49,847 nt of DNA, from sequence record NC_054893.1. One strand, given 5' to 3'. Shown one piece after another: positions 3,036 through 30,318 of this stretch. How positions within the stretch are numbered: the first letter of the stretch is position 1; every line of letters begins with the position of its first letter. A program made the position numbers and the translations under genes. The stretch is from Escherichia phage vB_EcoS_W011D. The notes below the pieces were generated by a model, which saw nothing but the letters and a program-made list of their open reading frames with translations, was not told the DNA's origin and searched no databases.

Positions 3036-4148
3036 TTACTTGTTAAGTTTAGCCAGGCGCGCATTCGGATCTAAAACCGTTTCGCCGTCCTGTTTTTCTT
3101 GTGCCGCATCGCCTTTGGTTGCGATACGTTGAGCCGCCATTTTATCAGAATCTTTAGCCAGATCAAAGGCAACATCAATGTAAGCGTCTGCTTTCATGGA
3201 AATGTCAGCGCCTGTAACCTCTTTGACGTAAGCAACTTTGATTGCTTTTGCGTCCAGGCCATCAGTTTTCACGCCTACTTCCTCGGCAACTTTTACAAGC
3301 TCTGCATGTGCTTCCGCGTCTGCTTTAGCCTGTGCAACGGCTTTTTCGATCTCAGCCGGAATGCCGTCAACTTTGGTTTTCAGTGCATCGCGCTCTGCTT
3401 CCAGGCCATCGGCTTTTACTTTTGCCGCTTCTGCGTCTGCTTTCACGTTTTCAATGAAGGTTGCAACTTCTTTTGGCACATCGAATTCAACAGCGCCGTC
3501 CAGTTTAATTTTTACAGTCATTACATGATCCTCTTTGTTTGAAATTTCGGTGTTATCATACGGGAATTCTTGCTCGCTATCAAGATTCAATTTTGCGATA
3601 CCCGCGCGACCTTTAAACACCATAGCGATATGGTTTACGCTGATATTGGTTTGCACCGCATCAAATCTAACCCAATCCGCGCTGTCTGCTTTCCATCCTT
3701 CCGGCATATCTTCATCAAAGAAATATTCACCAGTTGCGTTGTTGCCCCAGCCTGGTTTGTCAATATCAACGGAAGTGTAACCGACTGACAATTCGGCGGT
3801 TTGCTTTTTCTTCGCGCTCTGAATGGCTCGCTTGTCGTAAATGCTTAACGGAACCTCTACGCCAACCCCATTTGGCACGCCAGCACCAGCGCACGCGCCC
3901 ACAACAACATCCTTTGCATTCTCCGGCGTTACTGTGACGTGTCCGATTGTGATCGGCTTGCCGGAAAACGTTTCCAGTGAATCAGCCTTGAAAACCTCGG
4001 ACGCGGGGCGGAATTCTCGCCGCTCTCCGAAAGGTGTTTTGTAAATCTGCAACCCGATACGGGCAACAATCGGACGGTCTACCAGAAAACCATGTTCATC
4101 AATCTTTGCTTTTACCTGTACGCTATCAAAGCGTTGCACTTTTTTCAT
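3036..4148 (-). CDS. Scaffolding protein candidate with Ala/Lys/Glu-rich coiled-coil C-terminus
   Basis: Track ORF 3036-4205; start moved to internal Met (MKKVQRF) preceded by AAAGGAGAAA RBS; lies between head morphogenesis and decoration/capsid genes. Confidence 0.5.
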   Translation of the reverse strand: MKKVQRFDSVQVKAKIDEHGFLVDRPIVARIGLQIYKTPFGERREFRPASEVFKADSLETFSGKPITIGHVTVTPENAKDVVVGACAGAGVPNGVGVEVPLSIYDKRAIQSAKKKQTAELSVGYTSVDIDKPGWGNNATGEYFFDEDMPEGWKADSADWVRFDAVQTNISVNHIAMVFKGRAGIAKLNLDSEQEFPYDNTEISNKEDHVMTVKIKLDGAVEFDVPKEVATFIENVKADAEAAKVKADGLEAERDALKTKVDGIPAEIEKAVAQAKADAEAHAELVKVAEEVGVKTDGLDAKAIKVAYVKEVTGADISMKADAYIDVAFDLAKDSDKMAAQRIATKGDAAQEKQDGETVLDPNARLAKLNK

Positions 4149-6240: not shown

Positions 6241-6260
6241 TTTTTAGCAATTAGTGCTAT
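6241..6260 (-). promoter_or_regulatory. Conserved 20-bp box copy (ATAGCACTAATTGCTAAAAA, minus orientation)
   Basis: Box overlaps the terL TAG stop; TATAAT lies only about 4 nt downstream, then the attenuator hairpin. Confidence 0.5.
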
Positions 6261-8383: not shown

Positions 8384-8407
8384 AATAAAAAACCCCGCAA
8401 ATGCGGG
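8384..8407 (-). terminator. Rho-independent terminator (CCCCGCAAATGCGGGG plus T-run) ending the early leftward operon, followed by TGTTATAAT extended -10 upstream of terS
   Basis: Perfect 6-bp GC stem followed by TTTTTTATT on the minus strand; TTGACA upstream and TATAAT downstream of the hairpin. Confidence 0.65.
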
Positions 8408-8415
8408 GTTTGTTG

Positions 8416-9572: not shown

Positions 9573-9887
9573 TCAAATTTCGTTTAAATATTCGCGGAAT
9601 TTATTCAACGTCGCAACCTTTGCGCAATCCCATTCTGTGGAACCTGGTTCCTCCCACGGCGAACCAGGGCCGTGATTTGTCATGTCGTCAATCAAGCATG
9701 AAATTTCATCAACAATCAGATCTTTCGTGTGCTCATTAACTGCAATGTTTTCTACTGATTCAAACGCCTGAATCACTCCACCCAAAACGCGCTGCTGCGC
9801 TAATGCTTCATCTAACGTGTCGCAAATTGCTCTGCGCTCAATCTTGTTGTCGTTGGTTCCGATCTTGTATGTGTGAACGTAAATCAT
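9573..9887 (-). CDS. Hypothetical acidic protein
   Basis: 104-aa track ORF with GAGGAGG RBS; 4-nt overlap with the upstream gene. Confidence 0.45.
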   Translation of the reverse strand: MIYVHTYKIGTNDNKIERRAICDTLDEALAQQRVLGGVIQAFESVENIAVNEHTKDLIVDEISCLIDDMTNHGPGSPWEEPGSTEWDCAKVATLNKFREYLNEI

Positions 9888-10120
9888 AAACCCGCCTCCT
9901 CTGCTGTTTCGTTTTTACGCTTCCACTCCTCAATGGCTCTTTCATTCAATCCGCTTTCGTGCATCCATACTGCCAACCCTGCCGCATCAGTGCTGCGCGG
10001 GTAAATCTGATTTTCAATCTGATTTGAGATTTCTGCGATAACCCCGTTTATTGGGGTAAAGTCTCCAACTGTATTCATGAAAACTTTCGCTTGCTCAACT
10101 GAAAGGTTAATCGTGATCAT
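9884..10120 (-). CDS. Hypothetical protein
   Basis: 78-aa track ORF with GGAGAA RBS; ATGA overlap with the neighbouring gene. Confidence 0.45.
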   Translation of the reverse strand: MITINLSVEQAKVFMNTVGDFTPINGVIAEISNQIENQIYPRSTDAAGLAVWMHESGLNERAIEEWKRKNETAEEAGL

Positions 10121-10338
10121 TCTTCGTTCTCCACTTTATCAAATTTCACTTTCGGATTGTCACGCAGAAAAACAACGTCGTTATCGTATGCGTCAACTCG
10201 AATTTCGAAAACATCACCAGTTTCGCTATCAATCAGATAATCAGAATCCTCGGCAAGTATTAGCTCGTAGTGATTACCCTCAACAACAGCGCCGTAATCC
10301 TTGCGAGCCTCAAACATAGTTCCGGTATAAACTGCCAT
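10117..10338 (-). CDS. Small strongly acidic protein (DNA-mimic / anti-restriction candidate)
   Basis: Track ORF trimmed to ATG with GAGGAGA RBS; about a quarter of residues are Asp/Glu with a C-terminal ENEE tail. Confidence 0.4.
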   Translation of the reverse strand: MAVYTGTMFEARKDYGAVVEGNHYELILAEDSDYLIDSETGDVFEIRVDAYDNDVVFLRDNPKVKFDKVENEE

Positions 10339-10395
10339 TTTCAAATCTCCTCGTTTCGCTTCAATGAGGACACTTTAACAAATGTCCTCGCGGAA

Positions 10396-10415
10396 GTTTT
10401 AGCAATTCGTGCTAT
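10396..10415 (-). promoter_or_regulatory. Conserved 20-bp box copy (ATAGCACGAATTGCTAAAAC)
   Basis: Overlaps the TAG stop of the upstream gene; followed by hairpin GAGGACA/TGTCCTC with TAAAGT in the loop region and the conserved leader GCGAAACGAGGAG. Confidence 0.6.
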
Positions 10416-11696: not shown

Positions 11697-11716
11697 GTTT
11701 TAGCAATTCGTGCTAT
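11697..11716 (-). promoter_or_regulatory. Conserved 20-bp box copy (ATAGCACGAATTGCTAAAAC)
   Basis: Followed by hairpin AGGAGCA/TGCTCCT with TATAGT 18 nt after the box. Confidence 0.6.
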
Positions 11717-16964: not shown

Positions 16965-16992
16965 ATTATAATCAGGCCGCGCGACGTGTCAA
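16965..16992 (-). promoter_or_regulatory. Consensus sigma70-type early leftward promoter (TTGACA - 16 nt - TATAAT)
   Basis: On the minus strand: TTGACA at about 16987-16992 and TATAAT at about 16965-16970 with a 16-nt spacer; A-rich upstream tract. Confidence 0.6.
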
Positions 16993-17651: not shown

Positions 17652-17927
17652 ATGAACATCAGCAAAACTACTTTCAACTTTGCCAAGAAACGCGGTCTGG
17701 ATCTGACTGTTGAGGATTTCGGCGACGGTCTGCAACTGTGCATTTGGGAAGCTGATAACGATTGCGAATGGCTTTGCTCCTACCGCATCAACTATGACAA
17801 CTTAACCTGGCATGGCAACGTTTACCTCCCGCAAGAGATTAAAGAGGAATTACCAGCAACTATTAGCAACGAGGTTTTCTTGCGCCAGGTGCTGAAATTC
17901 ATCAGCGACGAAATGAAAAAGGCTTGA
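17652..17927 (+). CDS. Hypothetical protein
   Basis: 91-aa track ORF with AGGAG RBS. Confidence 0.45.
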   Translation: MNISKTTFNFAKKRGLDLTVEDFGDGLQLCIWEADNDCEWLCSYRINYDNLTWHGNVYLPQEIKEELPATISNEVFLRQVLKFISDEMKKA

Positions 17928-17946
17928 TAGCACTTTTTGTTAAAAC
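17927..17946 (+). promoter_or_regulatory. Conserved 20-bp box copy (ATAGCACTTTTTGTTAAAAC)
   Basis: Starts at the stop of the upstream gene; followed by hairpin GGGGTT/..CCCC with TGGCATAAT. Confidence 0.6.
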
Positions 17947-18001: not shown

Positions 18002-18223
18002 ATGAACTTTGAACAACAAACCCAATTCGAAACAGTAGTTACCGAACGTGACGCTACCCACGAGAAAGGATTATTCAAGAAGGGCGCACAAATCACCGTC
18101 GATATTGAGGATATGGTTGCATATCACGGCGGCATCACCTGGAATATCGCAGTGGTTGAGCCGGGCAAGAAATTTAAACTTCTGGCATTCAATACCGTGT
18201 TTGAAACTGTGGAAGGTGAATAA
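18002..18223 (+). CDS. Hypothetical protein
   Basis: Track ORF trimmed to MNFEQQ start with CAGGAGAA RBS. Confidence 0.45.
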   Translation: MNFEQQTQFETVVTERDATHEKGLFKKGAQITVDIEDMVAYHGGITWNIAVVEPGKKFKLLAFNTVFETVEGE

Positions 18224-18429: not shown

Positions 18430-18620
18430 CATTTACAAAAGAGCAATTCAGCGAGTTTTTCCGACTTGTGCAAATGAGCGGAAGCTGTAACCAAATGGAT
18501 CGCATAAACAGCCGTCTTGATATGCCAAAATTTATTAAGGAGCATGGGCGCGATAAATGCAATGAAATGTGGAGGCTTATCGAGTCCGGCGTTACGCCAT
18601 CAACTCTGGAGATTGGTTAA
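18426..18620 (+). CDS. Hypothetical protein
   Basis: 64-aa track ORF; ATGA overlap; GAGGAG RBS. Confidence 0.45.
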   Translation: MTFTKEQFSEFFRLVQMSGSCNQMDRINSRLDMPKFIKEHGRDKCNEMWRLIESGVTPSTLEIG

Positions 18621-18853
18621 TGGCACGCCACCAGGTAACATGCACCTGCACCGCTTACGATTTCCCGCATAGGTTCGGCGGCGGTCGGTGCAATGGGTTG
18701 TCGATAGTTGATGAGCATTGCGGCGGCTGGCTGTGCCAACACTGCAACCTATTCAATCAGGGTTGCGAGGTGATGAAAGGCCAGGAGGAGCCGAAAGAGT
18801 GCCCTTACGTGATCGAGTTTTGCGAGTACAACGAAATAAGGCTCCCTAAATGA
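18620..18853 (+). CDS. Cysteine-rich small protein (putative zinc-binding)
   Basis: Track ORF trimmed to MARHQVT start; Cys clusters CTCTA, HCGGWLCQHC, GCEV, ECPYVIEFC. Confidence 0.45.
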   Translation: MARHQVTCTCTAYDFPHRFGGGRCNGLSIVDEHCGGWLCQHCNLFNQGCEVMKGQEEPKECPYVIEFCEYNEIRLPK

Positions 18854-19048: not shown

Positions 19049-19068
19049 ATAGCACTTTTTGTTAAAAC
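19049..19068 (+). promoter_or_regulatory. Conserved 20-bp box copy (ATAGCACTTTTTGTTAAAAC)
   Basis: Followed by hairpin GCGCCC/GGGCGC with TGGTATAAT between the arms. Confidence 0.6.
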
Positions 19069-19410: not shown

Positions 19411-19635
19411 ATGGCTCAAGATGGTTTCTTTGCGCGACTGCATGAAGCGGAGGCGGCTGGACTAAACAAAGAGGCTGCGTTAGAGGTTGCGTATAAATTA
19501 ATCAGCCTTGATGATGCGTTGGGTGCAATGGACATGGATCAAGAATGTGGCGCTATTCTTGCAGATCCGACAACAATCATTAACGATTGCGGCTGCAATT
19601 TCGATCCATCATGCAAGCGTTGTTTTCCATTCTGA
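19411..19635 (+). CDS. Small acidic protein with C-terminal Cys cluster
   Basis: 74-aa track ORF with GAGGTGAAATTAA RBS. Confidence 0.45.
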   Translation: MAQDGFFARLHEAEAAGLNKEAALEVAYKLISLDDALGAMDMDQECGAILADPTTIINDCGCNFDPSCKRCFPF

Positions 19636-20832: not shown

Positions 20833-21077
20833 GTGAAAAGCGTTATTTAGGCGTTGGCGACGTGCAAAAGGAATGGCGCTATAAAGTCATAGATGGCGAA
20901 ACTTCCTGCATGAAAGTTGGCGATATTATCAAGCCAATTAAGGTTGTTGGCGGCAAATGGCAGATCGGACACAATTACCGCCAATCGTTACCTTTTGAGC
21001 GAATAGATAGCGTTACGGCTGAATGCGTTAGCTCACTGACCGGAAAACTAATGGCTCGCATAGAGCGGATCAAATAG
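20829..21077 (+). CDS. Hypothetical protein
   Basis: 82-aa track ORF; ATGA overlap with the upstream gene. Confidence 0.45.
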   Translation: MSEKRYLGVGDVQKEWRYKVIDGETSCMKVGDIIKPIKVVGGKWQIGHNYRQSLPFERIDSVTAECVSSLTGKLMARIERIK

Positions 21078-21093
21078 CACTTTTTGTTAAAAC
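21074..21093 (+). promoter_or_regulatory. Conserved 20-bp box copy (ATAGCACTTTTTGTTAAAAC)
   Basis: Contains the TAG stop of the upstream gene; followed by hairpin GTTGCCG/CGGCAAC with TATAAT in the loop. Confidence 0.6.
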
Positions 21094-24765: not shown

Positions 24766-24959
24766 CTATCAAGTTGATGATTTAATTATGTTTTATAGTG
24801 GCGAAAAAGTCAGATAATGCCCGTTTAATGGTGCCTGGATTGCGCTTCCTTGACCGTCGCGGATCTCGTATAAATCACCACAAAGTTTCACGGCACGATA
24901 AACAGCGCCAACGATAAACGGTAAAGATTTTGATGTGTTACGGATGCAACGAACTTTCA

Positions 24960-26081
24960 TTATTTGATCTCCATCATTTCAGGGTAGAACATGAAGCGAC
25001 CAATCTCGCCATATTCCTTATCGTAAACAATCACCGCCGCACGACGACGAGAGCGCCAACCACCGCGCGCCGCGTAAGCGTCTTTTGCTGCCATAGTGGA
25101 ATGTACTTCCACAATCCCCAGGCTCGTTTCTGTTACGGTCTGGTGATGCCAATGGCCTACATGCGCATACATGCTCTTTGAGTTTCCGAAATCCTCCCGC
25201 CAATCTGCCGCGCACATCATCAACAGCGTTTCAGGCTTGCGGATCGTATGTCCATGATGGTAAGCCAGGAACGTTTTACCATATTGCGTGTGATGCACAA
25301 CGCGCGGAGACACATCAACGTTTACGCGAGGCTCGTTTTCGTATGCCGCCGCCATTGCAGCACGTAGCCAGATCATTCCTGATTGGTCGTGATTACCTTC
25401 AATGATTTGCACCTCAACCTCTTTATGCTTTGTCAGCATGAGGCTAATTGCGCGGCGCGTGGCTCGGATTGCAACGTAAACTAATTTTGCGTAACGGCTA
25501 TCTTGATCCAGAACGTGACCGCTTGCAGGTGTTACAGCCTCCAGGCCGTCACTGTGAAGCATATCGCCACCAATCAGGAGCACCGCCTTTTCACTGTTTG
25601 GCGATTTACTAACTGCATAATCGAAAAAGTTATTCATAACCCTTTCCGCCGTTGCGGTGTCGTAGTTCTCGCCGCACTCATGCTTGTGAGCCATTGCCCC
25701 CAGGTGCATATCAAAGATCGGATATAAAGCCAGGCTTTCAGAATAATCAGCGCGTGATTCCGGCTGAGGCTCCAAGCGTGGCACTTCCTCTGCGAAAGCA
25801 TCCATAGCGGCTTGCATGAGAGCCTCTAATTGCTCTTTGTCTTTATTGGTGATAGTCCATCTCATGACTTCCTCACCATTTGCGCGAGTTAAAACAGACT
25901 CGCGCACAACTGCATAACCTGGAGCGCCTTTAATTTCAGTCTCACCAGAACGCGCAAGGCGTGACGCTCGACGCTCGACACTGCGAACATTAAGGCCGAA
26001 CTCCTCTGCGATCTGCTTGTAGGTTTTCCCCTCTTTGCGTGCTTTAATAAACTGCTCGTCGGTGATTTTTCGTACAGCCAT
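24960..26081 (-). CDS. Calcineurin-like metallophosphoesterase with N-terminal helix-turn-helix domain
   Basis: 373 aa; N-terminal HTH-like KTYKQIAEEFGLNVRSVERR; phosphoesterase motifs FDMH, GGDMLHSD and GNHD in order; AAGAGGAA RBS. Confidence 0.6.
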   Translation of the reverse strand: MAVRKITDEQFIKARKEGKTYKQIAEEFGLNVRSVERRASRLARSGETEIKGAPGYAVVRESVLTRANGEEVMRWTITNKDKEQLEALMQAAMDAFAEEVPRLEPQPESRADYSESLALYPIFDMHLGAMAHKHECGENYDTATAERVMNNFFDYAVSKSPNSEKAVLLIGGDMLHSDGLEAVTPASGHVLDQDSRYAKLVYVAIRATRRAISLMLTKHKEVEVQIIEGNHDQSGMIWLRAAMAAAYENEPRVNVDVSPRVVHHTQYGKTFLAYHHGHTIRKPETLLMMCAADWREDFGNSKSMYAHVGHWHHQTVTETSLGIVEVHSTMAAKDAYAARGGWRSRRRAAVIVYDKEYGEIGRFMFYPEMMEIK

Positions 26082-26628: not shown

Positions 26629-26648
26629 GTTTTAACATTTCGTGCTAT
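26629..26648 (-). promoter_or_regulatory. Conserved 20-bp box copy (ATAGCACGAAATGTTAAAAC)
   Basis: Contains the TAG stop of 26645-26878; followed by hairpin CCCCGC/GTGGGG then ATAATC and the conserved leader. Confidence 0.6.
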
Positions 26649-26878
26649 TTGTGCATATCGATCATTTCTTGCAGGTCTTTTGCGATCTGTTCTTGCCACC
26701 TCTCAAGAGGTAACGACCTTGTTTCTTCAAAGCTCATATCGAGCGCGCTTGAATACTCCCACGGGTCGCAATCAATAATCTCCTTTGCGTGCGGGTTTTT
26801 ATCTAGCGCCTCGCATACCATTGCGCGGAATAACAACCACTCGCCAGTTTCATTAAGCAACAAGGCTCTTTCTTTCAT
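26645..26878 (-). CDS. Small acidic protein
   Basis: 77-aa track ORF; ATGA overlap with the upstream micro-ORF. Confidence 0.45.
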   Translation of the reverse strand: MKERALLLNETGEWLLFRAMVCEALDKNPHAKEIIDCDPWEYSSALDMSFEETRSLPLERWQEQIAKDLQEMIDMHK

Positions 26879-30297: not shown

Positions 30298-30318
30298 GTT
30301 TTTAACAAAAAGTGCTAT
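30298..30318 (-). promoter_or_regulatory. Conserved box copy (ATAGCACTTTTTGTTAAAAAC) in the divergent helicase / regulator intergenic region
   Basis: Only copy that does not follow an upstream gene; followed by TAGTATAGC about 14 nt later, upstream of the helicase start. Confidence 0.55.

Follow-up and report, generated by a model that had tools for sequence, protein, structure and literature searches.

Gene A, as we call it here, is a small open reading frame (ORF) of Escherichia phage vB_EcoS_W011D (sequence record NC_054893.1) that encodes a strongly acidic protein of 73 amino acids (aa); the whole stretch of 49,847 nucleotides (nt) that was analysed is referred to as the window. The described proteins closest to it are Ocr, ArdA, CarS, Gp0.4 and Gp54. 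Ocr (gp0.3 of phage T7) shares with A its small size, its high acidity and a gene that opens a transcription unit, and by analogy a carboxylate-rich surface that blocks a DNA-binding protein is a candidate mode of action for A as well. However, Ocr is an all-helical dimer of 116 aa that mimics bent B-DNA, whereas A is predicted to be an all-beta barrel and matches it in neither sequence nor fold. ArdA is also acidic and carried by a mobile genetic element, but it is a three-domain alpha/beta dimer of about 165 aa that is widespread on plasmids and transposons, while A is confined to the Drexlerviridae. CarS of Myxococcus xanthus is a small acidic antirepressor with an SH3-type beta-barrel that acts as a DNA mimic (PMC2926617), and this analogy indicates that a barrel of the size of A could do the same. 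Gp0.4 of T7 is a small early protein whose host target is FtsZ and which a CapRel homologue also recognises (PMC13423816). It illustrates how a small protein made early can be both a binder and an immune trigger, although its sequence and fold are regarded as unrelated to A and its target is known. Finally, Gp54 of phage Bas11 is the small, non-essential protein that triggers the fused toxin-antitoxin defence CapRelSJ46, and its discoverers suspected an anti-defence role for it (PMC11578894). Few small phage proteins combine a solved structure with an identified immune sensor, and Gp54 is one of them.

An initial annotation, made from the letters of the window alone, had picked out A and four other ORFs (B to E below) as anti-defence or host-takeover candidates because of their acidic or cysteine-rich composition. 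All five ORFs were found on the strands and at the coordinates given there (Table 1), and their selection reflects real extremes. When ranked against a crude set of 80 ORFs of the window, with "small" taken as 130 aa or less, A to D take the first four places for acidity among the small proteins, A ranks first among proteins of any size (net charge per residue -0.15, roughly 2.4 standard deviations below the mean), and no small protein is richer in Cys than E. The lead that emerges concerns the position and fold of A: in T1-like phages it opens a conserved cassette of three genes, and its product is predicted to adopt an acidic version of the Gp54 fold that is unrelated to Gp54 in sequence.

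Gene A and its three-gene cassette

A is a genuine and selectively maintained gene, as its ribosome-binding site and ATG, its homologues and its low ratio of nonsynonymous to synonymous substitution (dN/dS) establish. The protein has the sequence of A0A4Y5NR62 from Escherichia phage vB_EcoS_W011D (100% identity). It matches phrog_6031 (E = 8.7e-14) and is homologous over its full length to gp20 of phage TLS (47% identity), which occupies the syntenic position upstream of the gene for a DUF7180 protein; MAVYT is the N-terminus of all homologues. By profile comparison the family could be extended to Tunavirus-type proteins (MMVSTDKFF..., phrog_10456; hhalign probability 94%). Homologues occur in 57 phage records and in about 50 clusters among 5.8 billion proteins, all on Drexlerviridae contigs of about 50 kb. 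An exhaustive HMMER search of the profile against 1.84 billion representatives at 50% identity gave six true clusters; the matches to long proteins were WD40 repeat proteins, spurious matches of beta-strands, and were rejected. Within subclades dN/dS is 0.02-0.14, which is purifying selection.

With 19 Asp and Glu among its 73 residues (26%), the protein bears out the earlier estimate of about one quarter, and it has a net charge of -12 and a pI of 4.2. The acidity is a trait of the family, since the net charge ranges from -8 to -16 in 31 homologues. The same cannot be said of the "ENEE tail" to which the initial annotation had drawn attention. The C-terminus of A does read VENEE, but close homologues end in VVLA, AA, GA or CA, and the V-E-N-E-E codons include the GGAG that serves the following, translationally coupled gene as its Shine-Dalgarno sequence. 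In related phages, GGAG, GAGG or AGGA is present at 20 of the 21 distinct junctions between this slot and the next gene. The tail is encoded by the ribosome-binding stretch of the following gene and therefore adds no independent evidence.

The cassette consists of a 19-nt repeat, a leader of about 59 nt, and the genes for the acidic miniprotein (A), the DUF7180 protein and an acidic protein similar to TLS gp22 (B). At both junctions, A/DUF7180 and DUF7180/B, the stop and start codons overlap as ATGA. The arrangement is conserved across the Tempevirinae and Tunavirinae, and DUF7180 itself is present in 278 phage records. For a survey of the cassette, 41 loci were retrieved with DUF7180 as the anchor. 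Almost without exception, DUF7180 is immediately preceded in these loci by a gene for a protein of 67-85 aa with a net charge of -7 to -15. This first slot holds either the A superfamily (phrog_6031/10456) or the unrelated family phrog_5684. A B-like gene with a 4-nt overlap follows DUF7180 in most Tempevirinae, and B is missing from the Tunavirus version. The slot type is independent of the similarity of DUF7180: the closest DUF7180 to that of the window (78% identity) is accompanied by the other type, and the type varies even within one genus, as Henu7 has the A type and Bas11 has phrog_5684.

The alternative occupant (PaulSarasin type, MKIKITKID...) is far more widespread than A, with 453 phage records that include Klebsiella Drexlerviridae, and its net charge is -7 to -14. 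Profile comparison by hhalign detected no remote homology of phrog_5684 to A or to Gp54. The labels "methyltransferase type 11" and "AbrB family regulator-like" carried by some phrog_5684 proteins look unfounded.

The repeat, ATAGCACnnnTTGnTAAAA, has 21 copies in the window against 0.2 expected, and all of them are oriented with local transcription. Their sites include 6242-6260(-), 10397-10415(-), 11698-11716(-), 17927-17945(+), 19049-19067(+), 21074-21092(+) and 30300-30318(-). Each copy is followed at a fixed spacing, about 18-20 nt on, by a -10-like hexamer, which is often enclosed in a GC-rich hairpin; a ribosome-binding site and an ATG come about 30 nt after that. The repeat-hairpin arrangement seen at A is also found behind most other copies. 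A conserved leader, CGAAACGAAACGAGGA, recurs alongside the repeats. At 35 of 37 related loci the distance from the repeat to the slot gene downstream is 57-62 nt, whatever the slot type. The repeat has been described in phage TLS with its function left open (PMC11447400). To us it looks like a family of phage promoters, and its pattern, together with the sigma-70 promoter and the terminator of the operon described below, suggests that A heads its own unit, transcribed by the host polymerase. A standard scan for sigma-70 promoters and terminators around A gave no promoter for it, a type of scan that misses repeat-type promoters. Repeats also precede the portal and replication genes, so they do not fix a temporal class, and the "early" status of the flagged ORFs is an inference from gene position only.

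Predicted fold and the comparison with Gp54

A is predicted, with a confident model, to be all-beta: a six-stranded barrel with a long, prominent beta1-beta2 loop. The closest solved structure to this model is Gp54 of Bas11 (PDB 9axb/9erv). A Foldseek search of the model against BFVD returned small proteins of T1-like phages only, and no Ocr, ArdA, Gam or other known inhibitor. Comparison with folds of the Ocr, ArdA or Gam kind had been suggested for these ORFs; for A and B no match to them was obtained, by sequence or by fold, and the predicted structures of both turned out to be unrelated to known inhibitors, which is the structural half of the outcome that the initial annotation had set against its own proposal.

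The likeness of A to Gp54 is one of predicted fold, and the two share no sequence similarity. Profile-profile comparison of the two families found no detectable relation (hhalign probability 0.1%). Moreover, the window contains a true Gp54 homologue in another gene (18002-18223), preceded by its own copy of the repeat (17927-17945). A can therefore be ruled out as the Gp54 orthologue. The homologue is identical to bas09_0060 of phage PaulSarasin, and its family occurs in 212 phage records. It was also the only match when 37 small proteins of the window (from 291-563 to 26645-26878, the five flagged ORFs included) were concatenated and searched against all PDB sequences; no flagged ORF was matched. 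Gp54 further differs from A in its locus and operon, in a net charge of only about -3 to -5 compared with -12, and in standing outside the three-gene overlapping cassette. If the model of A is right, this genome encodes two sequence-unrelated proteins of the same rare fold, one real and one predicted, in two divergent operons. A would thus share the fold of a defence trigger, and activation of CapRel by A is a candidate property only.

One further model of this type came from the BFVD search. A 70-aa protein of phage Sfin-2 (locus L052, 30247-30459, plus strand), labelled "DNA methylase" and far too small to be one, lies directly upstream of a Dcm-like gene, and its BFVD model resembles that of A (TM about 0.77). 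It was considered as the alternative slot protein, wrongly, as it is a distinct protein of another position. Going by such models, T1-like genomes may carry small barrels of the A type at several positions.

Candidate roles of the first cistron

The reading that we favour, tentatively and with less than even confidence, is that A is a protein-binding accessory factor for host takeover or counter-defence. A has no catalytic features. Stoichiometric action is most likely, and it would work as a small binding protein or decoy, made together with DUF7180 and B. Its carboxylate-rich surface would occupy a basic surface on the partner, most probably a host protein that binds nucleic acids or serves in defence. 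This is supported by the conserved acidity, by the unrelated acidic families that share the slot, and by the predicted fold in common with Gp54.

Several points weigh against it. No experiment or homology links A to any inhibitor, and in the literature we found no functional study of TLS gp20-22, of W011D or of any Drexlerviridae anti-defence protein. The fold likeness to Gp54 rests on prediction. All three cassette proteins are acidic, which gives no hint of a binding partner, and the cassette is near-universal in the Drexlerviridae of E. coli, Salmonella and Citrobacter, which fits a phage-internal role equally. The search of 1.84 billion representatives found no member of the A family on other mobile elements, in which A differs from Ocr and ArdA. 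The breadth of the families of C, D and E suggests, without being decisive, conserved phage physiology rather than sporadic counter-defence. Most members of the Drexlerviridae are reported to be highly susceptible to restriction-modification systems (PMC8594841), and Bas09, the closest relative, which has the phrog_5684 slot protein, is sensitive to type II and type III systems (PMC13250531). These published phenotypes weigh against a general anti-restriction role of A.

It is possible, although on the whole rather unlikely, that A instead works in a phage-internal complex, together with DUF7180 and B, as one of its subunits or as a partner in its assembly; this complex would serve a conserved step of the T1-like life cycle and would not be directed at host immunity. 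Examples of such a step are host-DNA breakdown with nucleotide reuse, control of replication or recombination, or a step before packaging. The three ATGA-overlapped cistrons imply coupled and roughly equimolar synthesis, and the cassette and the fixed spacing of its repeat are kept across two subfamilies and hundreds of genomes. It lies just upstream of terS, ahead of the strong terminator at 8390-8411, and the strong purifying selection on A would also fit. No early protein has yet been identified that accounts for the degradation of host DNA in T1 and TLS (PMC11447400), and in some phages the N-terminal domain of B is fused to a part that has the look of a MazG/DUF550-type nucleotide pyrophosphohydrolase. 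On the other hand, neither DUF7180 nor B resembles a known enzyme or DNA-handling protein, B is missing from the Tunavirus cassette, and three acidic proteins offer no charge complementarity. The first cistron is exchanged between unrelated families without a matching change in DUF7180 or the other neighbours. This is unexpected for a co-evolved interface and favours an external, variable target such as a host or defence protein over a co-evolved phage partner.

We regard as speculative, and quite improbable, the proposal that the slot holds a fast-swapping set of acidic beta-barrels that neutralise host immune or nucleic-acid-binding proteins, in which the A type has the Gp54 fold and Gp54-like members are detected by CapRel-like sensors.

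The proposal of the initial annotation is very unlikely. Under it, A and the remaining acidic ORFs would encode DNA mimics of the Ocr/ArdA type and would obstruct type I restriction-modification or similar DNA-targeting defences early in infection. High, family-conserved negative charge is a trait of DNA mimics that A possesses, and its small size and its place as the first gene behind a promoter-like element are also in keeping with one. Small beta-barrel mimics such as CarS exist, and restriction sensitivity varies among the Drexlerviridae for unexplained reasons (PMC8594841). However, no sequence membership of A to E in the Ocr family was found in a Pfam scan with E up to 1, which gave only a sub-threshold KMPT-N match for A, or in PDB sequence searches, and A does not have the elongated all-helical dimer fold of Ocr. 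For ArdA, there was no Pfam or NCBIfam match, and the sizes of 73-104 aa and the predicted folds of A and B are incompatible with three domains.

That A has no host-directed activity of its own and is mainly a phage pattern or trigger for CapRel-type or other protein-sensing defence, with the slot diversity as escape from the sensor, would accord with its predicted fold, common with that of the only characterised member, a defence trigger, and with a slot that alternates between unrelated families even in one genus, but it is highly improbable because a trigger of no use to the phage should disappear, whereas the slot is never empty and A is under purifying selection, because Gp54 homologues from SECphi27, Bas5, Bas8 and Bas10 do not activate CapRelSJ46 (PMC11578894), so that the fold does not predict sensing, and because A, having no sequence similarity to Gp54, lacks the residues with which the latter contacts CapRel.

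Other flagged genes, genome setting and significance

Table 1. Positions of gene A, its regulatory elements, the cassette and the other genes discussed. Positions are those of the window unless another phage is named.
Feature	Position	Strand	Description
Gene A	10117..10338	-	73 aa, strongly acidic; TLS gp20 / phrog_6031 family; predicted six-stranded beta-barrel; cassette cistron 1
Shine-Dalgarno GAGGAG of A	10347..10352	-	8 nt before the ATG at 10338; read from sequence
Hairpin GAGGACA-N10-TGTCCTC	10366..10389	-	Between repeat and ribosome-binding site; encloses -10-like TAAAGT (10372-10377)
19-nt repeat ATAGCACnnnTTGnTAAAA	10397..10415	-	Copy 59 nt upstream of the ATG of A; probably the upstream part of a promoter
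DUF7180 protein	9884..10120	-	Cistron 2, 78 aa; ATG overlaps the stop of A; Pfam PF23805, E 1.6e-29
Gene B	9573..9887	-	Cistron 3, 104 aa, acidic; TLS gp22 / phrog_11192; ATG overlaps the stop of DUF7180
phrog_5684 slot protein	PaulSarasin L001 1769-1981; Bas11 L051 701-913		Alternative occupant of the slot of A
Gp54 (Bas11) homologue	18002..18223	+	phmmer against PDB, E 2e-7 to 9axb; phrog_7421; outside the cassette
Gene E	18620..18853	+	77 aa, 9 Cys and 4 His; phrog_5016
Gene D	19411..19635	+	74 aa, acidic; phrog_9323; ends 10 nt upstream of a Dcm-like methyltransferase
Gene C	26645..26878	-	77 aa, acidic; phrog_2676; directly downstream of a Dam-like methyltransferase

The statement that none of the five products can be assigned by motif holds. 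Scans of the five ORFs and their neighbours with Pfam, NCBIfam, PADLOC and PHROGs gave only PHROGs of unknown function, plus DUF7180 for the neighbour. Matches to KMPT-N, Csy2, Rho-binding antiterminator and IraP appeared in the family scans and were discarded as far below threshold.

B and C are acidic as described, with net charges of -10 and -8. For B, the AF2 model (pLDDT 84) has a beta-beta-alpha-beta N-terminal domain and a helical hairpin; a fold search returned only generic helical proteins and nothing informative, and the profiles of B and DUF7180 had no match among PDB sequences. The N-terminal domain of B (about 46 aa, MIYIHxYxxG...VLGG) is modular: in other phages it can form a protein by itself (48 aa) or be joined to C-terminal parts of different kinds. 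Homologues of B in related loci are found, for example, at 3249-3677 of locus L022 and at 3225-3695 of locus L021.

The family of C comprises 317 phage records, T1 included, that of D 447 and that of E 530. D has a net charge of -8, and its C-terminal Cys cluster was confirmed, with 4 of the 5 Cys within the last 15 residues (C60xC62...C68xxC71, that is CxC...CxxC). The adjacency of D to the Dcm-like gene is kept in another genus. E had been credited with 11 Cys, and the count is lower (Table 1); its Cys pairs include CxC and CxxC, and no zinc-finger model of Pfam matched D or E. The records of E extend to Pseudomonas and Bordetella siphoviruses of about 60 kb and to Serratia and Erwinia phages, and the protein is always labelled "hypothetical".

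The window (49.8 kb) is a near-complete genome of a T1-like siphovirus, Changchunvirus-like within the Tempevirinae of the Drexlerviridae. Its nearest record is Escherichia phage PaulSarasin/Bas09 (Changchunvirus), with 96-98% identity over about 60% of the sequence and the same gene order. Operons of small ORFs on both strands diverge from 17.0-17.65 kb, and the minus-strand one extends to the terminase genes. A, B, D and E belong to these two divergent operons, and C lies in a third block, adjoining the Dam methylase gene. A perfect 12/12 sigma-70 consensus promoter (TTGACA-16-TATAAT, 16965-16992, minus strand) opens the minus-strand operon. A strong intrinsic terminator with a GC-rich stem of 9 bp and a T-run (8390-8411, minus strand) closes it and overlaps the start of terS. 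An ORF of 55 aa (24793-24960, minus strand) immediately precedes the genes for holin, endolysin and spanin, and in position it matches the standalone SH3 protein of the Drexlerviridae lysis module (PMC13164509). Among the database records, about 20 titled "Campylobacter phage" and one titled "Streptococcus phage MBBL140" are by sequence ordinary enterobacterial T1-like genomes, and their host labels are probably wrong.

T1-like phages are common, are used in therapy collections and are roughly one-half "dark matter", and they differ widely, for unexplained reasons, in their sensitivity to bacterial defences. If the cassette is ordinary phage housekeeping, the five "anti-restriction candidates" drop off the list. 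If the slot does hold a swapping set of neutralising barrels, hundreds of T1-like phages would carry a counter-defence module that has so far gone unrecognised, and the Gp54 fold would gain a native function. A and its cassette are cheap constructs for asking what the Gp54 fold does for the phage and whether the cassette serves counter-defence or core physiology.
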